47,156 bases of DNA from a virus. Its lineage: Duplodnaviria > Caudoviricetes. The position numbers and the translations under genes are program-made. The first letter of the stretch is position 1. Every line of letters begins with the position of its first letter. The notes under the pieces are model-generated. The model was not told the DNA's origin and ran no database searches. It saw only the letters and a list, made by a program, of their open reading frames with translations. Location of the stretch: positions 1 to 47,156 of IMG/VR virus record IMGVR_UViG_3300048892_000092; one strand, given 5' to 3'. Shown in pieces: positions 2,072 through 29,505 of the stretch.

Positions 2072-2208
2072 CTCAACTTCAGGCCCGGCCCGTCGCCGGA
2101 AACGCAGGTAAGAGCGGGGACGGGCGTGCCGCAGCGCCCAACCGCCGCCGGGCCTGAACATCCTTGGCGAGGCCCGCCCCAGCTCCGGGGTTGGTTCGCC
2201 GTAGGGCG

Positions 2209-2227: not shown

Positions 2228-2345
2228 TTGCATCACCCGTAGTCAGCTTCTCACCCTCACGCCGAGCGAGACGGGCCTCACCTCCTAGTCCGCTGCACCG
2301 ACGCCCGTTTCTTACGGCCGTCTCTGTCAGCGACCCAGGAGGTCG

Positions 2346-2690
2346 GTGTTGCGTTTGCTCGCTCTCACCCTGCTCGTCACCGTCGTCATCGCTGTACTGA
2401 CCGTGAACGCGCGAGGGGGTGGGGGGCTGAGCGCGCGTCAGGTTGCCTTCTGGGATCGGGTTGCACAGTGCGAGGAGCACGGGGCGTGGTGGCAGCGGGG
2501 GCGCACCTTCGTCGGCGGGCTCGGCATCTGGTCGGGCAACTGGTGGGCCTGGAGCCGCCATGTGGGGGTTCGCACGGAGGCTTCGGCCACCAGTCGCCTC
2601 GATCAGATGCGTGTGGCGCAGTACGGGTGGGAGAGCGAGCGCGGCTGGTGGGGCTGCTTCGCCGTCACCGGCACGCCGATTATCGAGTAG
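2346..2690 (+). CDS. rpf: Secreted resuscitation-promoting-factor (Rpf)-like lytic transglycosylase
   Basis: Signal peptide, then WDRVAQCE...FVGGLGIWSGNW...ASATSRLDQMRVAQ...GWWGC, colinear with the Rpf consensus WDxxAxCES...YGGLQF...TW...ASREEQIAVA...GAWPxC. GGAGG upstream. Confidence 0.75.
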   Translation: MLRLLALTLLVTVVIAVLTVNARGGGGLSARQVAFWDRVAQCEEHGAWWQRGRTFVGGLGIWSGNWWAWSRHVGVRTEASATSRLDQMRVAQYGWESERGWWGCFAVTGTPIIE

Positions 2691-2700
2691 AGGAGACAAG

Positions 2701-4353
2701 GTGGCGAAGACGCTGGCGGCGCCCGACCCGAAGGTGCTGGCGGCGTTCAAGAAGGACTACGCGCGGCGCCTGAACGAGCGCGCCGCGGCGCTCCAGCACC
2801 CCGGCGGGTTGCTCGACCACGTCCAGTGCGTTGATCCGAAGACCGGCGAGCGCTTCACGTTCACGCTCACCGAGCCCGACGCGCCCTGGTACTGGCAGCG
2901 CGAGGTGCTCGACCGCTGGATCGAACACCCCTTGAGCCTGGTCTTGAAGGCCCGCCAGATCGGCATCACATGGTTGGCGGCGGGCTATGCGTTGTGGAAG
3001 CTGTTGACGATGCCCGGCACGCGGGCGCTGATCGTCTCGATCAACGAGGATGAGGCGATCAAGGTCGTCAACCGAATCTTCGACATGTTCGTCTCGCTGC
3101 CAGACCACCTGCAGTTCGAGGCGAAGGTGACGAAGCCGTCGCGGGACGCTCGCCCTTCGACACTCATCGAGCTGACGTTCCCTGACGGGCGGATCTCGTC
3201 CGTGGTCGGCCTCCCATCGACACGACGGGCCGGTCACGGCGAGACCGCAACGATTGTTCTGCTGGATGAATACGCGCGCCATGAGTACGCGCGCGAGAGC
3301 TGGAAGGCGACGTTCCCGACCGCGGACAACGGCGGCCAGATCGTCGTCATTTCCACCGCGAACGGCGTCTCGAACGAGCAATCCGGCGAGGGCAATTTCT
3401 TCCACCATTTGTGGGTGAACGCCGAGGCGTACGGAATCGAGACGCAATTCCTGCCCTGGGATTTGCACCCGCAGCGCGACGAGAACTGGTACGCGCGGAA
3501 CGCCCGCGCGCTGCCGCCATCGGATCGCGCCGAACAGTTTCCGATGAGCCCGGATGATGCGTTCATCAACACCGGGGAGTGCTGGTTCGACACCGAGATC
3601 CTCGCCTGGTACAGCGACAACCACAAACTCGACGAGGACACCCGGCTCCGTTTCATCACCGACACTTCGGGCGCGAAGGCGAAGATCCACTACGAGAGCA
3701 AGGGCCCGGTCAGGTTGTACGCGAAGCCGGACAAGACGCACTCGTACGCGATCGGCGCCGACGTCGCCACAGGGCGAGGGTTCGACTACAGCTGCGCCTA
3801 CGTGATCGACCTGACCTCGATGGCGGTCGCAGCGGAGATCCACGGCAAGCTCGACGCGGACGAGTACGCGGAGCAGCTGCACTACCTCGGGCGCTGGTAC
3901 GACACGGCGCGGATCGCGGTCGAGATGGGCGGCGGCTTCGGCGAGCCGGTGATCATCAGCCTGCGCGACGGCCGCAAAGGCAGGCCGCACTACCCGAAGC
4001 TGTACCGGCACTCGATCGCGGACAGGTCGGACATGCACCAGCTCGCGAACTACGGCTTCCCGATGAACTCGAAGACGAGGCCGCAGGTGATCAACCAGAT
4101 CGAGCAGGCGATCCGCGAGAAGACGATCCCGGCGATGCCGCGCAGCCTGATCATGGAGTGCCGCACGTTCGTGCGCCAGAAGACGCTGCCGAGCCCTCGG
4201 GCCCAGGAGGGCTCGAACGACGACCGCGTGATGGCGTTCGGCATTGCCCTGGAGATGTACCGCCAGTACGGCACGCACCCGAAGCGGGTGCGCGTGAAGC
4301 GAACCAAGGCGCAGACCCACAGATACCCGTGGGAGAAACGGAGAGTCGCATGA
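2701..4353 (+). CDS. terL: Terminase large subunit
   Basis: Walker A LKARQIGIT, Walker B VLLDE, STANG coupling motif, nuclease IGADVATG...DDRVMA. GTG start after AGAGGAG. Confidence 0.95.
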   Translation: MAKTLAAPDPKVLAAFKKDYARRLNERAAALQHPGGLLDHVQCVDPKTGERFTFTLTEPDAPWYWQREVLDRWIEHPLSLVLKARQIGITWLAAGYALWKLLTMPGTRALIVSINEDEAIKVVNRIFDMFVSLPDHLQFEAKVTKPSRDARPSTLIELTFPDGRISSVVGLPSTRRAGHGETATIVLLDEYARHEYARESWKATFPTADNGGQIVVISTANGVSNEQSGEGNFFHHLWVNAEAYGIETQFLPWDLHPQRDENWYARNARALPPSDRAEQFPMSPDDAFINTGECWFDTEILAWYSDNHKLDEDTRLRFITDTSGAKAKIHYESKGPVRLYAKPDKTHSYAIGADVATGRGFDYSCAYVIDLTSMAVAAEIHGKLDADEYAEQLHYLGRWYDTARIAVEMGGGFGEPVIISLRDGRKGRPHYPKLYRHSIADRSDMHQLANYGFPMNSKTRPQVINQIEQAIREKTIPAMPRSLIMECRTFVRQKTLPSPRAQEGSNDDRVMAFGIALEMYRQYGTHPKRVRVKRTKAQTHRYPWEKRRVA

Positions 4354-12758: not shown

Positions 12759-13061
12759 ATGAGTCCTGCTGGATCGAAGGAAGAGAAGAAGCTGCCGGTG
12801 CCCTCGGGGCATCCGCAGGCCGGGTACGTCAGCCCCGATCTGTCCGGCTCGGACGGGGTCGAGATCCTGCCCGATGAGGAGCAGAAGCTGAAGGACGAGC
12901 GCGACCAGGCGCGCGAGGACGAGCTGAAGGCCGTCACCGAGAGCGAGGACAAGGCGGCGCGCGAGGACGCGAAGGCCGCGGAGGAGGCTGCGAAGGCGCA
13001 GCAGGCCGACGCGAGCAAGCAGGCCGCGCCGACGACCACGAAGGCCAGCTCGGGCTCGTAA
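12759..13061 (+). CDS. Charged Ala/Lys/Glu-rich hypothetical protein
   Basis: AAAGGAG SD; ATG at 12759; TAATG coupling to the endolysin. Confidence 0.7.
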   Translation: MSPAGSKEEKKLPVPSGHPQAGYVSPDLSGSDGVEILPDEEQKLKDERDQAREDELKAVTESEDKAAREDAKAAEEAAKAQQADASKQAAPTTTKASSGS

Positions 13062-13987
13062 TGAGCGCATGGTGGGAAGCCCCGTACAAGGGTGGGCCGA
13101 TGGTTCCCGTACCGGGCTTCCCGCGTCCGCTCTACCCGCCCGATGCCGCTCCAAACCGGACGCCCTCGGTCAACGGGCCGGACGTAGAAGCCTATAAGCG
13201 GACTTGCTGGCGAGCTGGCAGATGGCCGGGGCCCGCCTCGAACTTCGACCGAGCCTTCTCGAACGCCTTCAGCCACGGCAAGTCCGGGAACGTCGGCGAG
13301 ACCGGGATCGCCGGAGTGCAACGTCAGCAAGGCATCGAGGCTTCGGGATTCGTGGGATTGGCAACGTTCAACACGCTGCGCTCGATTCGCTGCCCGACAG
13401 GGCCCCATCAGGGCGAGATGGCGATGGACGCCAACGCGGCGAACCTGATCGCGCAGGCCTGGCAGCTGTACGGCGGCGAGGAGCCAGCTCCCGAGCCGCC
13501 GCCCGTCGAGGGGAAGACGACCAGGCAGCGCGCGCTCGAAGCCGCGATCGGCTACATCGGCTACAAGGAGAACCCGCCTAACAGTAACGACTCGAAATTC
13601 GGAGAATGGTACGGCGCTAATTACCAGCCGTGGTGCGCGACATTCGTGTCATATTGCTACGAGGTTGACGCGGGCGGATCGCCCAGTTTTGCGAAAGGGC
13701 AAAACTACGCCTATGTGCCATATATGGTCTCGGACGGTAGGGATAACCGAAATGGCTTGAGTATCCCCAGCTCGGTTATTCCGGGGGATCTGGTGACCTA
13801 CAATTGGGACGGCGGCCCGGACGGCACCTACGATCATGTCGGCATATTCGAGGCCTGGACGGGCGGCTCGAGTTTTACGGCCATCGAAGGAAATACTTCG
13901 GTTGACAACAACAGCAATGGAGGGGCCGTGATGCGCAGGCAGCGCTCGGCTACCGCGCAGACGACGACCTTCATTCGCGTCGCGTGA
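13061..13987 (+). CDS. Endolysin with peptidoglycan-binding-like N-terminus and CHAP domain
   Basis: QPWCATFVSYC, PGDLVTYNW, DHVGIF, TAIEGNT (CHAP); VQRQQGIEASGFVGLATF (PG-binding-like). Confidence 0.85.
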   Translation: MSAWWEAPYKGGPMVPVPGFPRPLYPPDAAPNRTPSVNGPDVEAYKRTCWRAGRWPGPASNFDRAFSNAFSHGKSGNVGETGIAGVQRQQGIEASGFVGLATFNTLRSIRCPTGPHQGEMAMDANAANLIAQAWQLYGGEEPAPEPPPVEGKTTRQRALEAAIGYIGYKENPPNSNDSKFGEWYGANYQPWCATFVSYCYEVDAGGSPSFAKGQNYAYVPYMVSDGRDNRNGLSIPSSVIPGDLVTYNWDGGPDGTYDHVGIFEAWTGGSSFTAIEGNTSVDNNSNGGAVMRRQRSATAQTTTFIRVA

Positions 13988-20750: not shown

Positions 20751-23700
20751 ATGTCACCACCGCGCCGCCCACCGAAGGGCGGCAGGCGTCAGCCTGCCAA
20801 GAGCTTCTACGACAACCCGTTCGCCAAGATGGTCAAGCAGTACGCCGCCGCTCACCCGGCGGAAGCCAAGGCTGTCGCTGCAGCGAAGGCGGTGCCAAAG
20901 CCGCCGCCGAGCAAGCCGATGACGCAGCGCCAGAAGGACGAGGCCGCCGTCACCATGGGCAAGCTGCACCTGCTCCCGACCGACGTGGCGGCGGCGACGC
21001 CGTCGCTGTTCGGGACGAAGAAGGGCGACGTCAAACGGATCGCCACCCATGCGTTCGCGCACGCGCTCCCGACCGGGCCGCTGAAGCCGACGATCACCAC
21101 GCCGCCGACAGCGAAGGAGCAGGCAGCGACCCTGCACCAGCAGGCGACCTGGGCGCGCAACGTCGTCGTGCCCGGCAAGACGGGACAGAAGGCGCGCAAG
21201 CACTTCGTCGCCTCGCTCACCCCCGCGGAGCGGGCGGCGAAGCTGAGCGAGCAGGAGACCGACTACGCCGCGACCAAGGTCGCGACCGACGCGCAGACCT
21301 TCCACGCGCCCCGCTCCGACTTCGGGATCGGCGCCAACACCGACAAGCTCGCCGCGGCGGCGCACGCCGTGGCGGGGGTGACCAAGGCCGTCCTGCCCAC
21401 CGTCCACCGTGACCCGTTCACGCACCAGCCGGTGCTCGGCGCTCCCCCCGCCGCGATCGGCGCCGGGCACATCATCGGCGACATTGCCCACGGCGGCGCC
21501 GTCGAGGCCCCGGCGATCGGCAACTTCATCCTTCACCAGCAGCCGCTGAAGGGCGCGATCGACACCGCCCGCGCCGGGATCGCGGTCGCGCGCGGGGACA
21601 TCGGCGCACCGATCGCGAACGTCGCCGACGCGGTGCGCTCCGGGATCCACTCAGTGACCGGCCTCGGCCGTGCCGCGACCGAGATCGGGCAAGGGGACGT
21701 CGGCGGCGGGACACGGCTCGGGCTCAGCTCGGCGGCCGGGGCGGCGCAGGCCGGAGGGCTCGTCCCGCCCGGAGCGCTCGGACAGGTCGGCAGCCTCCCG
21801 ACTGACGTGCTCGGCGGGCTCGGCAAGGTCGCGGTCGGCACCGCCGCCTCGATCCCCGGCATGGGGGCGCATCCGATCCGCTCGGTCGACGAGGCAGTCG
21901 GCTTCATCCGCGGCGGCGGCGACGCGGCGATCGCGCTCGGTTTCCTGCTTCAGCCGAGCATCAGCAGCCACGACCGCAACCGCGTTTACAGCCAGCTCTT
22001 CCACGGGTTCGTGGACGACCTGATGAACAAGTACGGGCCCGGCGTGACCTGGAAGCAGGCGGTCAAGAACGGCTTCGACCAGCCGCTGATCCACGCTCTC
22101 GACGGGTTGGCGGTGGCCGCCCCGCTCGCGAAGAGCGCGTCGGTGATGCGCTACTGGAAGCTCCCCGGCGTCAGCTTCGAGGACGCGGTCAGGCTGTCGC
22201 GCGATCCGACCCGGCTCGGCGAGATCGCCCCCGGCGCCGAGGCGCCGCGCCCGTCGCGCACCGCCACGATCAGGGGCAAGAACATCGACCCCTACCAGGT
22301 GCCGCTGCATGAGTCGCAGAGCCCGCTCTGGCGCGGCATCACCCGCAACGTCGGCGACCCGCTCGCGCGTGGCGTCGAGAAGGTTGCCGGGCCCCGCTTC
22401 CCGCTCTCGGAGACGAAGAAGGGGCTGCGCGCGCAGACGCAGCTCTCCAAGCAGCAGGTGCGCCGCTACGCCGCGCAGGCGCACGCGCTGATGAACCAGG
22501 TCAACAGCTATCTCGGCAAGGAGCCGGAGCAGGGCGTGCGCCTGTTCCTCTCCCACCAGCGCCCCGCCGACATCCCCGAGGACGTGTGGCTGAAGGCGGC
22601 GCTGAAGAACACGCAGGACATGCTGGAGGAGGGCCCGGCGCAGGCCGCTCGCAAGCTGACTCCGCGCGAGCAGCAGCTGCTGCGGCAGGTGAAGGCGATG
22701 CGGGCGGGGGTCGACCGGCTCTCGCAGGAGCGCTGGGGGCGCCGCGTCGAGGACGTCTACCACGAACAGGAGCGTCTGCACCATTCGCTGCTCCTGAACG
22801 AGCACCACCTGAAGGGCGCCCGCGAGCGGCTACGCGCTGTCGAGGGCCCCGACGAGGCGGGCGTCTACACCGCCTCGATCTACAAGCTGCGCACCGATCG
22901 GCTCGCGCTGGAGCAGCAGCTGCAGAAGCTCGCGCCCGACGACCCGGAGATCCCGGTGATCCGCGGCGCGCTGCACCAGACGACCGAGCGCATCTCGGCG
23001 CTGGAGAGCGGCCGTGCGCATTCGCTGGAGCTGGGCGACGTCGCGAAGGGCACCAGGATCCAGGGCGCCCGCGACGACGTGCGCACGCTGGAGAACACGC
23101 GCAGCGCGCTGCAGGAGCAGCTCGACGCGCTGACCGTCGGCCAGGCGCCGGTCGAGTCGGAGATGCGCACCACCCTGATCAACCGGATGAACGAGCTGCC
23201 CGGCGTCAGTGACGAGGAGGCGGCGCATCTGACGAACCTGTTCGACACCTCGGCGCGACGCTGGGGCGATCACTTCAACCGCGACCCGGGCGAGTTCTAC
23301 AGCGACCCGACCGGCTTCGGGTTGAAGGAGATCAGGATGATCCAGGAGCACGCCGACGCGCAGCTACCCGAGGGGGTGCTCGCGCAGACCAGGACGTCGG
23401 CGATCGCGGCGAACGCCAACCGGATCGACCCCGAGGGCGCCTACCCGCGCAGCGACTCCGGCCGTCTCTATTACAACGATGAGCACCGCGGGCTCGTCGA
23501 GACGCTCGACCAGGCCGAAGTCGCCGACGTGGCGGCGAAGCGCGCCTATCCCGGCAAGGCCAACGCCGACCACCCGAAGCGAGTCGAGGCGAGGGACGCG
23601 CTCGCCAAGGCGCGCGAGGACGAGCTGTACGCCCGCATCTGGTACGGCTCGCGCGCCTCGAAGGGCCAGGTGCCGCGGGTGGCCGGACGGCGGGCGCTCG

Positions 23701-26700
23701 CCAACCGGCTGGTGGCCGCCTACAAGGGCCGGGTCGGGGCGCTCCCCTCTCGGGGCCGCACCCCGCGGGAGATGGAGCAGCTGATGGCGCTGCTCGACGA
23801 GTTGCGCATCCACGGCGAGTCGGGGCGGATGTGGTACGAGGATTCCGCCCGCGCGATCATGGAGCTGGCGGGGGGTGACAAGGAGCGGGCTGCTCAGATC
23901 GCCCAGCTGGTCGCGATCTACTCGCCCCAGAAGGCCGTGATCCCGAACATGGGCGAGGCGATCAAGGCCTACAACACCTGGCTGATGAAGCGGCCGATCG
24001 ACAACGGCCAGGACTGGCAGAAGGCCGCAGCGCAGCGTGTGCTCGACGGCGAGGGCGACTGGGACGGGCGGAAGACGAACAACTTCTACCGCAACTTCCT
24101 CGAAGACATCGACAAGGCGCGCTGGAAGAAGGAGCGGTATCTGACCAAGGCCGAGCAGCGCAAGGCGCTCGCCGACAACAAGATTTACAAGGGGCAGACC
24201 GAGCTGGGCGAGGTGACCGCCGACATGTGGATGGCCCGCGTGTTCGGCTACCTGCGCACGGGCGTGTCCGAGGGCCGCTATGACGTGATCGAGTCGGTGA
24301 CCAAGCAGATCGCGAAGGAGACCGGCTGGAAGCCGAAGCAGGTGCAGGCGGCGATCTGGACGGCGATCAAGGACAAGTCGGACGACGTCAGCGCCAACGT
24401 CGACTTCGCCGACGCGATCGGGCGCCACCACGGGATCGTCAACTACGAGACGGCGCCGGGCTCGACCTACGTCGGCCCCTTCAACGACGTTTACAAGGCC
24501 TGGGATCCCGAGACGCAGCAGGCGTTCCTCGCCGCCACCAGTCGCCCGATCGACCAGTTCCTGCAGGACGCCGGGGTTCTCCACCGCCGCAGCGAGTTCG
24601 GCCCCGGCATCTACGAAGGTGTCGCCTCACCGGGTGCGCGGCTGCGTCTGGTCGCGACGCGCGCCAGGGAGGATCCCTACACGGTCGACCCGACTCAGCG
24701 CGACATGTTCAACTACGTCGCCGCCTCGATCGGCCGGGCGACGTTGCAGAACTCTGTCGCCTGGGCGCGCGGCTTCCTGCCGACGGCGCTCAAGCACGCC
24801 GACACGATGGCGGTCTCGATCGGTCGGAGAGCCTCCGACGAGGAGGCGCTTCAGCTTCACCGGCTGCTCAACCCGGAGGGTCAGCCCACGCGGGTGTTCG
24901 TCGTTCACGCCGGGAACGAGGGCCTGCTGCTGCGCAAGGATCCCGGGCTCGCCGACGAGGTTTTCCCCAACCACCTGCCCGGCAAGCGCTACCATGAGAG
25001 TTTCCAGGGACAGGTCGAGACAGCGCTCGACCAGGTCTTCCCTGATGCTCCTCGCGACTTGCTCAGATCAGACGGGGAGCTGGTCGAGAACGACTGGTCA
25101 ACCGGAACGGAGGGTTACGACAATGCCATCGAAAGCGCGCTTGGCAACACAGGAGACGCTGAACAGGTTCTTCGGTTCAGGCAACTTGCTGATCGGCTCG
25201 CCAGTGACACCGCAGCCGTCAGAGACGAATTCGGCGCAGACTCCGCAGCAGCCGTCGAACGTCACGCCGACCTCGCCGGAGCCCGCAGCGCTGCCGCCCG
25301 AGGGCGAGCAGCCCGCCTAGAACAGAAGAGCGTCACCCCGCCCGCGCTGCTCTCCCAGACGCGCGGGCAAGACCTCTACGGCGCCGTCGAGTTCCTGCAC
25401 ACGCCGGAGGGGCAGCGGATTCTCCACCTCACCCAGCAAGCGGACGTCTCGACGCTGCTGCATGAGCTGTACGGGCACAACGTGCGCGAGATCGCCGCCG
25501 CCTACCCGGAGCAGTGGGCCCGCATCGAGGCCTTCGTCGGCAAGCCGCTCGCCGAGTGGGAGCCGGAGGATCATGAGCGCTTCGCTCGCTGGTCGGAGCG
25601 CTACTTCGCCGACGGCGTCGCGCCGACGCCGGAGCTGGTGCCGGTCTTCCAGCACCTGAAGCGCAGCTACCGCGAGACCTACGGGGCGATGAACCGGATC
25701 GGGCGCCCGCCGCCGCCCGAGGTGAAGGCCCTGTTCGACGAGATGTTCGGCTCCTACGACGACCCGAACGTGTTCCGGGTCGCGAACATGAGCACCTCGA
25801 TCCCGCACGACATGCGCTCTGCGGAGCAGCACGCGATCTTCGAGTTCACCTCCAAGCAGCTCGCCGACCTACGGCGCCGCAACGACGCGCGTGCCTACAG
25901 CCGCTCGATCGAGAAGCTGCAGAAGGACTACGAGAAGCAGGGGGAGAAGGCCGATGCGGCGGGCGGCTTCGACAACCTGAGCGAGGACGACCAGACCAAG
26001 ATGATCGCCACCCGCTCGCAGCTCTTGACGATGCAAGCGGAGAAGACGATGGCCGACGTCGACCGCGCCACCGGCCTGCGCCGCCGGGTCGAGCAGATCG
26101 AGGCGGCGCTCGCGAACCCGACCGGCCCCGCCTACGAGGGGGCGCTGGCGGCGCTCGGTCAGCTGACCGTGATGCGCGAGAACATCCTCAAGACGGTGTT
26201 CGGCGACAAGTACGACCCGGTGTTCGAGAACCGCGTCGACCTACTCGCCGACCACCTCGTCGACAAGGGGCTGATCGAGCCCGACTTCGCGCGCGGCACC
26301 GCCAAGTACGCGCCGCACATGCCGCTCGGCGGCAAGGAGCCGCGGCGGATCGACCGCCCGGCGCAGGGGCTGGAGGGCGGCGTGATCGGTCAGGTCGACC
26401 AGTCGCTGCTCGGATTGCACAACAAGAACAACCTCTACCGCTGGCAGAACGGCGATCTCTCCACCGACCCGAAGGTGATCTTCGACGTCTGGCAGAACGC
26501 GCAGGCGTTCGCGTTCATCAAGGAGATGAAGGATCTGTTGTTCGACATGGGACGGCCGCTTGGGCGCGACGAGCCGATCCCCGACAACGTGTTCCTGGTC
26601 AAGAAGGACGGCACCCCGGTGCCGCACGTCCAGAAGGTCGCGTCGGGGGTTGCCTCGACCGACGAGGTGCAGGACGCGCTCACCGCGCTGGAGGCGCGCG

Positions 26701-28430
26701 ACCCGGCCAAACTCGAGGAAGTCGTCACTCGCTACGTCGATGACACGTTCCTGAAGAGCGAGGACGTGCGCGCCTCGATCCAGGCCGCGGGGGCCGAGAG
26801 CGCCGACGCCGCGCTCGCCGCCCGCATGAAGCTCGACAACGTCCGCGTGATCGACCGCCACATCGTCGAGGGCCTGTTCCGCCCGCTCCGTGGCGGCACC
26901 TCGACCGCCAGCCGCGCCGTCGACTGGTCGAACACGGTCGCGCGCTGGAGCCTGATCTACACCAACCCGGCCTACATCCCGACCAACTTCATCGCCAACA
27001 ACTTCTACCTGCTCGCTCAACAGGGCCCGCTCGCCGTCGCCAACCTGACGCGCGCCTCGAAGATGCTCCTGAACGACAAGGAGTTCGCGATCAGGGTCGC
27101 GGGCGAGGGCGGCGAGCTGCCCGCCCAGGCGGCGATCGCGCGCGGGCGCGGAATCGGGCAGGGGCTGCGACAGCGCGAGGAGCGCTACCTGCGCAGAATC
27201 ACGGCGGTGCCCGACAAGCTGCCGCGGATGGCGGCCTGGGTGTACGAAGCCCGCCGCATGGGCTACAGGACGAAGGAGGACATGCTGCGGCTGATCGACG
27301 CGGAGCCGGGCACGGCGCTCGCTCGCAGACGCGACCTCGTCGCGCACCGCACGAACGAGATCATGGTCAACTTCGACCGGCTCTCCGACTGGGAGCGCCA
27401 GACCGTCACGAAGGTGCTGTTCATCTGGCCGTGGATCCGCGGCGCGACTGCCTGGCCGTTCTACTACGCGAAAGAGTTCCCGGTGCAGACGGCGATCGGC
27501 GCCAACCTCGGGCAGGTTGCCGAGGACAGGCGCAAGGCGATGATGGGCAACGTCCGCTCCGCGTACCGCGACCTATTCCCGATCACGAAGCACGGCCAGT
27601 TCGCGCGCACGATCAACGTGGGGGCGCTTTCGCCTACCTCGACCGCCGCCAGCTCGCTGCAGGCGATCCTCGACCTGGGCCGGATCAACGTGCCGAGCGA
27701 GCAGGGCTCGCGCGTGATGGACTTCTTCAACCCGCTCTGGCAGGGGATCACGCAGAACGTGACCGGCATGAACGACTACGGGCAGCCGATCTCGCACAAG
27801 GACGCGCTGTTCGACTCGGCTGTCAACTTCGTCCCCTTCGGCGGCATCATCCGCCAGGTGATCGACCCGACGAAGGCCTCGAAGGTCTACAACCGGCGCG
27901 ACTGGAAGGCGCTGCTCGAACGCCGCGTCGGCAGGGTGCTGCCGATGGAGGTCGACCTGAACCGGCTGCACGCCTTCCAGACCCAGAACGGGAAGAAGAC
28001 GACGCAGCAGCGGCTGGACGACAAGATGGCCTCGCTCGTCAAAAGCCGCAACAAGGTGGGCGGAACGATGCCGATCCCGAAGAGCGTCCGCCACGCGCTG
28101 CTGATCCAGACGATGTACGAGGAGGAGGTCGCGCGCCAGGAGCACGACCTCGGGCAGTCCTCCGACTGGCACCCGAAGCGGCCGGGCGCGCAGCCGACCT
28201 TGTCGCCGCTGCAGCGGGCCCGGGTTGTCTACTCGCTCTACCTCAAGACCTTCCCGACCGCTCGGGGGGTGCTGCCGCCACCTGAGCAGATCAACAAGAG
28301 CGGTCTCGACATCTACTCGGACGGCCTGCTGTACGGGAACGAGAGCGAGGGTTTCCCGCGTCAGGATGCGCTGCTCGGGCCGCTGCAGGAGTACCGCTCC
28401 GACCTCTCGAAGGAGAAGACCGGTGGCTGA
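20751..28430 (+). CDS. Giant polyvalent internal virion/ejection protein (2,559 aa)
   Basis: Last of the ejection genes; HhH-GPD-like segment (about 23.8-24.4 kb), zincin-like DVSTLLHELYGH (25.46 kb), C-terminal NPAYIPTNF...VNFDRLSDWE region. Confidence 0.75.
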   Translation: MSPPRRPPKGGRRQPAKSFYDNPFAKMVKQYAAAHPAEAKAVAAAKAVPKPPPSKPMTQRQKDEAAVTMGKLHLLPTDVAAATPSLFGTKKGDVKRIATHAFAHALPTGPLKPTITTPPTAKEQAATLHQQATWARNVVVPGKTGQKARKHFVASLTPAERAAKLSEQETDYAATKVATDAQTFHAPRSDFGIGANTDKLAAAAHAVAGVTKAVLPTVHRDPFTHQPVLGAPPAAIGAGHIIGDIAHGGAVEAPAIGNFILHQQPLKGAIDTARAGIAVARGDIGAPIANVADAVRSGIHSVTGLGRAATEIGQGDVGGGTRLGLSSAAGAAQAGGLVPPGALGQVGSLPTDVLGGLGKVAVGTAASIPGMGAHPIRSVDEAVGFIRGGGDAAIALGFLLQPSISSHDRNRVYSQLFHGFVDDLMNKYGPGVTWKQAVKNGFDQPLIHALDGLAVAAPLAKSASVMRYWKLPGVSFEDAVRLSRDPTRLGEIAPGAEAPRPSRTATIRGKNIDPYQVPLHESQSPLWRGITRNVGDPLARGVEKVAGPRFPLSETKKGLRAQTQLSKQQVRRYAAQAHALMNQVNSYLGKEPEQGVRLFLSHQRPADIPEDVWLKAALKNTQDMLEEGPAQAARKLTPREQQLLRQVKAMRAGVDRLSQERWGRRVEDVYHEQERLHHSLLLNEHHLKGARERLRAVEGPDEAGVYTASIYKLRTDRLALEQQLQKLAPDDPEIPVIRGALHQTTERISALESGRAHSLELGDVAKGTRIQGARDDVRTLENTRSALQEQLDALTVGQAPVESEMRTTLINRMNELPGVSDEEAAHLTNLFDTSARRWGDHFNRDPGEFYSDPTGFGLKEIRMIQEHADAQLPEGVLAQTRTSAIAANANRIDPEGAYPRSDSGRLYYNDEHRGLVETLDQAEVADVAAKRAYPGKANADHPKRVEARDALAKAREDELYARIWYGSRASKGQVPRVAGRRALANRLVAAYKGRVGALPSRGRTPREMEQLMALLDELRIHGESGRMWYEDSARAIMELAGGDKERAAQIAQLVAIYSPQKAVIPNMGEAIKAYNTWLMKRPIDNGQDWQKAAAQRVLDGEGDWDGRKTNNFYRNFLEDIDKARWKKERYLTKAEQRKALADNKIYKGQTELGEVTADMWMARVFGYLRTGVSEGRYDVIESVTKQIAKETGWKPKQVQAAIWTAIKDKSDDVSANVDFADAIGRHHGIVNYETAPGSTYVGPFNDVYKAWDPETQQAFLAATSRPIDQFLQDAGVLHRRSEFGPGIYEGVASPGARLRLVATRAREDPYTVDPTQRDMFNYVAASIGRATLQNSVAWARGFLPTALKHADTMAVSIGRRASDEEALQLHRLLNPEGQPTRVFVVHAGNEGLLLRKDPGLADEVFPNHLPGKRYHESFQGQVETALDQVFPDAPRDLLRSDGELVENDWSTGTEGYDNAIESALGNTGDAEQVLRFRQLADRLASDTAAVRDEFGADSAAAVERHADLAGARSAAARGRAARLEQKSVTPPALLSQTRGQDLYGAVEFLHTPEGQRILHLTQQADVSTLLHELYGHNVREIAAAYPEQWARIEAFVGKPLAEWEPEDHERFARWSERYFADGVAPTPELVPVFQHLKRSYRETYGAMNRIGRPPPPEVKALFDEMFGSYDDPNVFRVANMSTSIPHDMRSAEQHAIFEFTSKQLADLRRRNDARAYSRSIEKLQKDYEKQGEKADAAGGFDNLSEDDQTKMIATRSQLLTMQAEKTMADVDRATGLRRRVEQIEAALANPTGPAYEGALAALGQLTVMRENILKTVFGDKYDPVFENRVDLLADHLVDKGLIEPDFARGTAKYAPHMPLGGKEPRRIDRPAQGLEGGVIGQVDQSLLGLHNKNNLYRWQNGDLSTDPKVIFDVWQNAQAFAFIKEMKDLLFDMGRPLGRDEPIPDNVFLVKKDGTPVPHVQKVASGVASTDEVQDALTALEARDPAKLEEVVTRYVDDTFLKSEDVRASIQAAGAESADAALAARMKLDNVRVIDRHIVEGLFRPLRGGTSTASRAVDWSNTVARWSLIYTNPAYIPTNFIANNFYLLAQQGPLAVANLTRASKMLLNDKEFAIRVAGEGGELPAQAAIARGRGIGQGLRQREERYLRRITAVPDKLPRMAAWVYEARRMGYRTKEDMLRLIDAEPGTALARRRDLVAHRTNEIMVNFDRLSDWERQTVTKVLFIWPWIRGATAWPFYYAKEFPVQTAIGANLGQVAEDRRKAMMGNVRSAYRDLFPITKHGQFARTINVGALSPTSTAASSLQAILDLGRINVPSEQGSRVMDFFNPLWQGITQNVTGMNDYGQPISHKDALFDSAVNFVPFGGIIRQVIDPTKASKVYNRRDWKALLERRVGRVLPMEVDLNRLHAFQTQNGKKTTQQRLDDKMASLVKSRNKVGGTMPIPKSVRHALLIQTMYEEEVARQEHDLGQSSDWHPKRPGAQPTLSPLQRARVVYSLYLKTFPTARGVLPPPEQINKSGLDIYSDGLLYGNESEGFPRQDALLGPLQEYRSDLSKEKTGG
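25123..25320 (+). CDS. Candidate nested +1-frame gene inside the giant protein (65 aa)
   Basis: GGAGG at 25109-25113, ATG at 25123; codon bias switches to this frame. Confidence 0.5.
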   Translation: MPSKARLATQETLNRFFGSGNLLIGSPVTPQPSETNSAQTPQQPSNVTPTSPEPAALPPEGEQPA

Positions 28431-29505
28431 TGAGGTGCAGCAGATCGATGCGTTTCTGCACAAGAACGGCTCGCCGATGGCTGGGCTCGGCAACGTGTTC
28501 GTCGCCGCCGGTAAGAAATACGGCGTCGACCCGCGACTAGTGGTCGGGATCGCCGGAGCCGAATCCTCGCTCGGCAAGTATGCGTACCGCCCGTACAACG
28601 CCTGGGGCTGGGGCGGCAGGGCGGGGCACAGTTTCGGGAGCTGGGAGGAGTCGATCGCCCAGGTCACGAAGGGCCTGCGCGACGGCTACATCAGCCAGGG
28701 GCGCACGACCCCGGCGGCGATCGTCTCAAAGTACGCGCCCTCCTCGGACGGCAACGACGAGGCGCAGTGGGCGTCGAACGTCGGCCACTTCATGAAGCAG
28801 CTGGGCGCCGACCCGGGCGCCTCGATGTCGATCCGGCCGATGGCCGGGATGAAGATGCCGACGGCGCCGCCGACCCTGAAGATGCCCGACATCGGCCCGT
28901 CGGCGCTGGAGTCGTCGGCCCCGTCGGGGATTGACCAGTTCGTGATCAACAACGCGGGCCTGAACCCGGACATGCAGGTGCGCAACCTGGTCAGCGGGAT
29001 GCTGAGCGGGCGGCTCGACGAGAAGCCGTGGACGCCGCCGCCGCTGAAGATGCCGACGCTCGGGACGGCGGGCGGCAAGGTGCCGATGATGGGCGGCGCG
29101 ATCTTCCCGCAGGGCAAGCTCGGCAAGGTCGCGTTCGCGCCGAGCGCGAACCGGGCGGGGATCGGCGTGAACCCGGCGGTGACGAACTTCGTGCGCCAGA
29201 TCGCCGGGAAGTTCGGCCCGATCACAATCGGCACCGGCACGAACCACAACCAGTTCGTCTCCGGCACGAACAACACCCGGCAGTCGGATCACTGGGAGGG
29301 CAACGCCGTCGACATCCCCGCCTCCGGCCACACGCTGACGCGGCTCGGGCACGACGCGCTGATCGCCGCCGGGATGCCGTGGCGGAAAGCGGAGAAGACG
29401 AGCGGCGGGCTCTACCAGGTCGGCAAGTGGCAGATCATCTTCAACACGACGCTCGCGCAGGGCGGCAACCACTGGAACCACCTCCACGTCGGACTGAGAG
29501 GCTGA
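28423..29505 (+). CDS. Virion-associated peptidoglycan hydrolase: glucosaminidase/lysozyme-like plus Zn-peptidase (M15-like) domain
   Basis: AGKKYGVDPRLVVGIAGAESSLG...YNAWGW...KYAP; C-terminal SDHWEGNAVD...HWNHLHVG. Confidence 0.8.
   Translation: MADEVQQIDAFLHKNGSPMAGLGNVFVAAGKKYGVDPRLVVGIAGAESSLGKYAYRPYNAWGWGGRAGHSFGSWEESIAQVTKGLRDGYISQGRTTPAAIVSKYAPSSDGNDEAQWASNVGHFMKQLGADPGASMSIRPMAGMKMPTAPPTLKMPDIGPSALESSAPSGIDQFVINNAGLNPDMQVRNLVSGMLSGRLDEKPWTPPPLKMPTLGTAGGKVPMMGGAIFPQGKLGKVAFAPSANRAGIGVNPAVTNFVRQIAGKFGPITIGTGTNHNQFVSGTNNTRQSDHWEGNAVDIPASGHTLTRLGHDALIAAGMPWRKAEKTSGGLYQVGKWQIIFNTTLAQGGNHWNHLHVGLRG

Follow-up and report, generated by a model that had tools for sequence, protein, structure and literature searches.

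An Rpf-like gene in a swappable slot ahead of the phage terminase gene

The window analysed here, a stretch of 47,156 nucleotides that is probably a complete phage genome (the 166-base stretches at its two ends agree at 165 positions), carries at the head of its packaging and head genes a small gene for an Rpf-like protein, and this gene sits in a slot upstream of terL whose occupant is swapped among related phages, some of which share the same leader sequence before it. The first-pass annotation, which had singled out the protein as a stand-alone secreted enzyme that may awaken dormant cells, contained neither the slot nor the leader. It is the interchangeable slot with its leader that is new, while the enzyme alone belongs to a known kind. 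We propose, with about as much belief as doubt, that the product would be a helper lysin, damped at the level of translation and acting beside the CHAP endolysin by analogy with the Tgl protein of kayviruses.

The window has a GC content of 64-71% and encodes an SU10-type portal, a capsid protein, an adaptor and a tyrosine integrase; neither a tape measure nor a tRNA was recognised in it. DNA of the phage is present in metagenomes from soil and roots (24 datasets), and no RNA dataset is among those listed. Judging from the range of the Rpf family and from GC content, its host would belong to the Actinomycetota, and perhaps to the Thermoleophilia. Homologs of the integrase point to no organism, and none of 401 sampled genomes matches it at 1e-40. 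Three contigs from genome bins match terL, the closest being a 48.7-kb contig (L245) in a Ca. Binatus bin. This sole genome-bin link for the close clade carries a terL stretch and a slot gene identical to those of a viral contig (L212), and it is of phage size and probably a misbinned phage. A 2559-aa protein encoded at 20751-28430, with two DUF7178 stretches, is probably an internal virion (ejection) protein, and the product of the second lysozyme-like gene, directly after it, is probably a virion entry enzyme. The features discussed are collected in Table 1.

Table 1. Features of the window and their coordinates
Feature	Position	Strand	Remarks
Second short conserved non-coding motif	2174..2199	+	Upstream of the leader; in 13 of 72 terL loci, one being the window's near-copy
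Conserved leader, ~94 nt	2258..2351	+	Predicted long hairpin: anti-SD 2281-2286 pairs with SD 2337-2342
Alternative 5' stem of the leader	~2261-2276 with 2303-2318	+	Predicted in the partial transcript
Rpf-fold protein gene	2349..2690	+	Probable start TTG 2349, 113 aa; longest ORF from GTG 2346, 114 aa
Predicted Sec/SPase I signal peptide	2349..2411	+	One Arg, Leu/Val-rich h-region, V-N-A cleavage site; rule-based
Rpf-type lysozyme-fold domain (predicted)	2448..2678	+	E43 codon 2472-2474, C42 2469-2471, C104 2655-2657
terL (terminase large subunit)	2701..4353	+	Defines the slot
CHAP endolysin	13061..13987	+	Weak PG-binding match; inspection by eye shows no signal peptide; proposed partner in function
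Second lysozyme-like gene	28426-29505		Weak SLT/glucosaminidase matches; PHROG endolysin, E 4e-7

The gene and its product

The open reading frame at 2346-2690 (+ strand, 114 aa) is as the first-pass annotation described it, save that its start probably lies one codon later, since the Shine-Dalgarno (SD) sequence stands 3 nt from the GTG and 6 nt from the TTG, and since homologs begin at the codon equivalent to the latter. An artefact or a shadow reading frame is ruled out by a GC3 of 0.84, against 0.65 and 0.57, by dN/dS values of 0.09-0.25 in 14 of 15 pairs (0.60 in the remaining one), and by the agreement of independent contigs from two runs, neither of them flagged as a possible source, which show no difference over 2226-2608 and three differences over 2391-2779. 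Homologs make up 16 of 31 candidates, the full-length ones (n = 13) having 61-92% identity. At the end of the C-terminal helix (~2622-2650), differences from the relative of 92% identity are clustered, and the window is identical there to a relative of 61% identity (P0012), a pattern that suggests recombination inside the gene. The gene ends 10 bp before terL and is, as had been noted, outside the lysis cassette: the CHAP endolysin gene follows 10.4 kb downstream in the same orientation.

The signal peptide that had been noted is also predicted by a rule-based check of n-, h- and c-regions, in which a small-x-small site follows the h-region in 14 of 14 proteins. The mean hydropathy of the h-region is 3.11 in the window protein and 2.7-3.7 across proteins, and the AlphaFold model has a helix at residues 2-24. 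SAR endolysins possess a weakly hydrophobic, Gly/Ala-rich anchor that remains uncleaved. The signal-anchored endolysin, which the first-pass annotation had named among the cases that would overturn its reading, was rejected here, as the h-region is only 8% Gly+Ala (8-33% in homologs) and sites of SPase I type are present; a lipoprotein was rejected on composition, the window protein having no lipobox Cys. The N-terminus fits a cleavable Sec signal better than a SAR anchor. The predicted mature protein, of ~92 aa and 10.4 kDa, contains 10 Trp and no wall-anchoring domain.

As had been anticipated, the sole Pfam match is to the Rpf family (PF06737), yet its 18.8 bits (E 0.0027) fall under the 27-bit gathering cut-off, and we class the protein as Rpf-like without counting it among the formal members of the Pfam family; among relatives 22 of 48 pass the cut-off and 42 of 48 match at E <= 0.1. 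The best PDB sequence matches are RpfE, RpfC and RpfB, at E 1e-4 for the single protein and 1.7e-7 for the family profile. An Rpf or lysozyme fold, on which the first-pass annotation had made its claim depend, is indeed predicted: the AlphaFold model (pLDDT 81.6) matches RpfB, RpfC and RpfE best, above all lysozymes. Foldseek gives these a probability of 1.0, with Rpf at the top 15 ranks wherever shown (E 2e-3 to 1.5e-2, none below 1e-3), VIA Z is 8.9-10.1 for them against at most 7.2 for lysozymes, and the superposition on Rpf has an rmsd of 1.9-2.6 Å over 68-84 residues.

The catalytic Glu, the Cys pair predicted to form a disulfide and the hydrophobic pocket all appear to be retained. E43 in its AQCE motif, C42, C104 and the GGLGI stretch are present as first described, and among 42 aligned relatives E43 is kept in 41, C42 in 41, C104 in 39, W48 in 41 and W102 in 42. 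Aligned by eye, E43, C42/C104, W48 and W102 map to Glu292 (catalytic), Cys291-Cys355, Trp297 and Trp352 of RpfB, which are listed in the accessible part of PMC11978375. The pocket keeps V39, W48, L59, I61, M88 and W102, and RpfD likewise has Ile at the Phe311 position (same source and part). The helix motif that had been reported is there too, reading A-T-S-R-x-x-Q-x-R-VA, not A-S-R. Among the positions that bind sugar in RpfB, Gln310 is replaced by Gly (41 of 42 rows), Asp312 by Trp, Tyr or Ala (Trp in the window protein) and Thr315 by Asn in the window protein, while Gln347 has no clear counterpart; because Gln310, Asp312 and Gln347 are not kept, sugar specificity may differ from that of RpfB. 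RpfE also is without Gln310 (Arg in the alignment), and these polar residues are not strictly defining. The GGLG[IF] form is common, occurring in 82 of 101 representatives (P0042, an RpfB-like protein that bears G5, has it too), and most of the nearest ESM Atlas clusters are viral.

That phages carry Rpf motifs mainly inside tape measures stands for most of the 60 matches listed from the 404 cultured-phage records retrieved with a canonical Rpf query. Free-standing Rpf genes with hydrophobic leaders occur among those 60 (BRock gp43, GiJojo gp174, Shagrat gp107 and Jflix2 gp4), and 151 IMG/VR stretches encode relatives of the window protein, the best 80 of which all lie in reading frames of 105-382 aa, none of them a tape measure. 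A free-standing exported phage Rpf is not new, then, and is common in uncultured phages. Our search of the literature, mostly outside subscription journals and without supplements, brought up neither a paper dealing with free-standing phage Rpfs or with the slot, nor a functional study of such Rpfs; PMC12501426, PMC12366335 and PMC12796364 match the topic in their reference lists only, and the accessible part of 10.64898/2026.09.28.755132 is confined to dormancy genes of bacteria and sigma factors of viruses.

The four cultured-phage genes, for which the nearest profile is PHROG 29757, resemble that of the window in being separate genes with a hydrophobic N-terminal leader and an Rpf domain. 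They differ by their canonical CES and GGLQF motifs, by a C-terminal LysM-like module (by eye) and by not standing at terL, share only ~36% identity with the window protein (E 0.8), and carry no other annotation than transglycosylase, hydrolase, glycosyltransferase or minor tail protein. The Rpfs of actinobacteria (that of M. luteus; RpfB, RpfC and RpfE of M. tuberculosis) are alike in predicted fold, catalytic Glu, Cys pair, pocket and signal peptide, and RpfC has a similar single-domain layout; compared with them the window protein is phage-encoded, 27-37% identical, under the Pfam cut-off and rich in Trp, without LysM or G5. In mycobacteriophage tape measures such as that of Barnyard, Rpf motif 1 is borne by the virion and used at entry, according to the accessible part of PMC1796659, whereas the Rpf of the window is a separate protein with a predicted export signal.

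A slot ahead of terL

The DNA upstream of the gene is conserved in relatives whose genes further upstream differ, and when it was used for scanning, the leader turned up in front of various small genes, all of them preceding terL. We collected terL loci by taking the best 80 of 264 relatives, removing 10 (partial terL or fewer than 50 bases upstream) and adding 2 genome-bin contigs, which gave 72 loci. Where terL identity is at least 66%, a slot gene is present in 63 of 68 loci (54 of 58 after removal of duplicates). These genes are small and on the same strand as terL, at a median of 48 bp before the terL match (range -31 to 901); 51 were found through their hydrophobic leader and 12 through similarity to those, two of the latter being cut by contig ends. 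Among the five loci where the slot gene is absent, two have fewer than 720 bases upstream and the other three represent two distinct phages (L194 and L202) in which no slot gene was detectable in ample upstream DNA; none was seen in the four distant terL loci (52-57% identity).

By their C-terminal domains the slot genes form ten families (at 50% identity): five are Rpf-like (25 loci), one being fully canonical at 109 bits, three are SLT-like (29 loci), and the remaining two (9 loci) are recognised only by motif. In 63 of 63 slot proteins there is a candidate for the catalytic Glu motif, the pattern having caught an earlier site in two. Of the motif-only families, F5 (3 loci) has a pLDDT of 68, no Foldseek match and an HHalign probability of 20%, two of its three members being just above all decoys, and F3 (6 loci) has weak Pfam SLT matches (E 0.13-0.14), no PDB match and an HHalign probability of 3%. 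On a quick IQ-TREE tree of 62 terL sequences the family labels need 28 changes, where the minimum is 10 and the shuffled mean 39.9; the starred branches require the largest family to have changed at least 8 times and the second largest at least 5 times, and the window's own family forms a single clade of three. Slot presence and these family changes together indicate that the slot is old, that its occupant has often been exchanged and that Rpf identity is not conserved. What is conserved is predicted export together with a lysozyme-type fold and, as ten swapped families fill the slot, we understand selection as keeping an exported glycan cutter rather than an Rpf specifically.

Two observations may be set beside these. 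In four slot genes (L211, L216, L218 and L221) the start codon after the SD seems out of frame with the enzyme's reading frame, with a conserved short motif in between; a frameshift, an alternative start or translational coupling is possible. At 1216-1511 of the window, tiny basic and other small ORFs precede the slot, as Lys/Arg-rich micro-genes do in many relatives.

Rapid swapping of families at one place resembles what host-range or conflict selection does to genes, and the enzyme might alter surfaces, its limited cutting of glycan hampering adsorption or injection by other phages (exclusion) or loosening the thick stationary-phase walls of neighbours for the progeny; according to the accessible part of PMC1796659, a muralytic motif that the tape measure of TM4 contains helps in infecting cells in stationary phase. 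We take this to be very improbable, as our literature search found no precedent and another lysozyme-like gene (28426-29505) is already present in the phage, behind the largest of its structural genes. Proteins with signal peptides are, besides, unlikely parts of virions.

The leader sequence and its predicted folding

Located by an nhmmer profile search, the leader is present at full length in 18 of 54 distinct slot loci, spanning six of the ten families. In slot loci 20 of 20 full-length matches end at the start codon or at most 5 nt away, and all strong profile matches in 1.84 Mb of loci lie before the start of a slot gene. It is dispensable, being absent in the nearest relative (L209), while two thirds of slot genes lack a full version. 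Rfam gave no relevant match at E <= 10 in 1900-2800 and none at gathering in the window or in 7 relatives; a c-di-AMP (ydaO) or other known riboswitch was set aside for want of an Rfam match.

In the predicted hairpin the SD is paired with a probability of 0.71-1.0 in 19 of 19 leaders, at a cost of 2.7-10.4 kcal/mol to free it; for the window the predicted cost is 9.2 kcal/mol, a figure to be read against 3 of 13 other SD-like starts of this GC-rich window that are nearly or equally closed (at least 7.4 kcal/mol). Fold z-scores range from -1.1 to -5.1 (17 copies folded). The first ~65 nt would form a mutually exclusive 5' stem in 15 of 19 leaders, which is also the RNAalifold consensus (87% of cells paired). 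Native arms of the hairpin pair 4.5 kcal/mol better than mixed arms, a difference reached in 0 of 20,000 permutations, and those of the 5' stem 1.3 kcal/mol better (p 0.004), relatedness of the sequences inflating both tests. Column-wise covariation in a MAFFT alignment is not significant, the score of the hairpin being reached in 276 of 500 shuffles and that of the 5' stem in 41 of 500. A pseudoknot joining both stems was discarded, nothing speaking for it beyond compatibility. On these folding models the leader is a probable translational damper.

Other non-coding elements surround it. In 9 loci the short motif upstream of the leader stands ~110-150 nt ahead of the slot gene, and in 4 it is farther upstream; L197, where the start was misassigned, is probably a tenth locus with the motif near its slot gene. 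At 2078-2159, after an Ig-like gene, the window has a GC-rich hairpin with an outer stem of 12-13 bp (z -2.6) and no Rfam match, which recurs in L002/L209 directly before the SD of the Rpf-like gene, where the usual leader is absent.

The proposal with which this gene was first annotated, that enzyme from infected or lysed cells acts as a wake-up factor, nicking the walls of dormant neighbours or freeing muropeptides so that they grow and become infectable, has to be weighed at this point. A small, unanchored mature protein could diffuse, its predicted fold is closest to true Rpfs, the phage is present in soil and roots, host rpf genes rise in WC1 infection (PMC10986025), and Rpf-deficient mycobacteria are less well infected according to a conference contribution (PMC12908700, accessible part). 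Even the swaps are compatible with it, as Rpf can give way to an unrelated muralytic domain that takes over its role (PMC1084345, accessible part). That Rpf/Sps displacement likewise kept genomic slot and function while the muralytic domain was replaced; it was, however, one ancient swap between phyla involving unrelated folds, where the phage slot has seen lysozyme-fold families exchanged many times, and recently, inside a single clade. Yet about half of the slot occupants are SLT-like and not Rpf-like, a leader predicted to suppress translation suits a self-toxic enzyme better than a broadcast signal, and close relatives of the gene often adjoin an endolysin, all of which makes awakening unlikely. 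A bolder version, in which a large clade of soil phages would keep an interchangeable cassette of secreted wall cutters, the two-state leader being a new switch controlled by a ligand or by kinetics, the enzyme or its muropeptides waking hosts, and domains being swapped to match wall chemistry, we consider quite improbable.

Placement of the gene and its likely role

Outside the slot, the placement of the gene is mixed. Among 13 other high-GC loci with a GGLG[IF]-type gene, 6 show this gene immediately followed by a homolog of the window's endolysin (the stop of one overlapping the start of the other in 2), 2 near-identical ones have it convergent with the endolysin, 2 have it ~5 kb away (L011 and L013), and 3 are without a detected endolysin. 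In lower-GC relatives, scanned over 62 of 121 neighbours and 13 of 15 chosen loci, replication or recombination genes are neighbours in 8 of 13 loci (with WhiB in one) and an endolysin is nearby in 1. BRock gp43 and GiJojo gp174 stand three genes from their respective endolysins, and a metagenome scan gave 4 loci. The gene is, in short, lysis-linked, packaging-linked or early. Five small phage contigs (L012, L014-L016 and L018) show tail genes, then the Rpf-like gene, then the endolysin; in all except L012 a divergent serine-recombinase-like gene (by eye) comes before the Rpf-like gene.

Early placement brings to mind a cell-autonomous role, in which the enzyme would remodel the wall so as to keep the infected cell or lysogen growing, or out of dormancy, during phage development. 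Wall remodelling, which the first-pass annotation had offered as its alternative, fits better than the waking of neighbours. The phage has an integrase, many relatives carry the gene among early genes or just after an integrase, a small HTH-like gene stands upstream of it in divergent orientation in L087 and L088 (by eye), a low and damped output would be in keeping with maintenance, and phage-driven induction of rpf has been proposed to prevent dormancy (PMC10986025). We nevertheless rate this role as rather improbable, for the co-orientation of the gene with terL across so short a gap suggests late co-transcription, and a sigma-70 scan, which covers actinobacterial promoters poorly, found no promoter on the same strand.

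The simplest account is the helper lysin, because it joins export, interchangeability at the level of the fold, the predicted damping and the frequent linkage to an endolysin. The Sec system of the host would export the small Rpf-fold protein, which would cut glycan strands of peptidoglycan and so weaken in advance the wall of the infected cell. Since it would not depend on the holin, its output from a strongly transcribed operon would have to be kept low or brief lest the cell lyse early, and the leader may achieve this if it first folds into the alternative 5' stem and only afterwards into the closed hairpin. At lysis, cleavage of glycan would complement the cleavage of peptides by the CHAP enzyme, much as RpfB and RpfE synergise with the endopeptidase RipA (PMC11978375, accessible part).

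The nearest precedent is the kayvirus Tgl, which the accessible part of PMC7150955 describes as a muralytic, exported lytic transglycosylase proposed to be a second endolysin beside the amidase/CHAP LysK, transcribed early and lysing the host after permeabilisation of the membrane; it is the one tested example that we found of an exported muralytic phage enzyme. Like the window protein it is phage-encoded, equipped with a signal peptide, of the same superfamily and separate from a signal-less endolysin containing CHAP, and the window combines a predicted signal peptide (rule-based), a predicted lysozyme-fold domain and a signal-less endolysin in one phage. It differs in its 230 aa, its SceD/IsaA-like nature, its place a few genes from lysK and its early promoter, and neither a swappable slot nor an RNA leader is mentioned in the accessible part of that source; the likeness drawn here is one of description. 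Against the helper lysin stand the distance of the window gene from the lysis genes and the lower-GC relatives, often placed among replication and recombination genes. This last objection is blunted, as kayvirus Tgl is itself expressed early.

If the enzyme only helps lysis, the finding is a modest extension of Tgl to another group of phages. The retention of the slot in 54 of 58 related phages through many swaps nonetheless speaks of strong selection for an exported glycan cutter besides the endolysin, and the leader is a candidate for an uncatalogued element of translational control. The families of the slot make up a natural panel of minimal (~90-aa) enzymes in which Rpf-type and SLT-type domains may be compared, in the waking of cells as opposed to wall cutting only. 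This bears on how phages persist where most of their hosts are dormant and, were the bolder version of the wake-up cassette true, phages would farm the seed bank of the soil.
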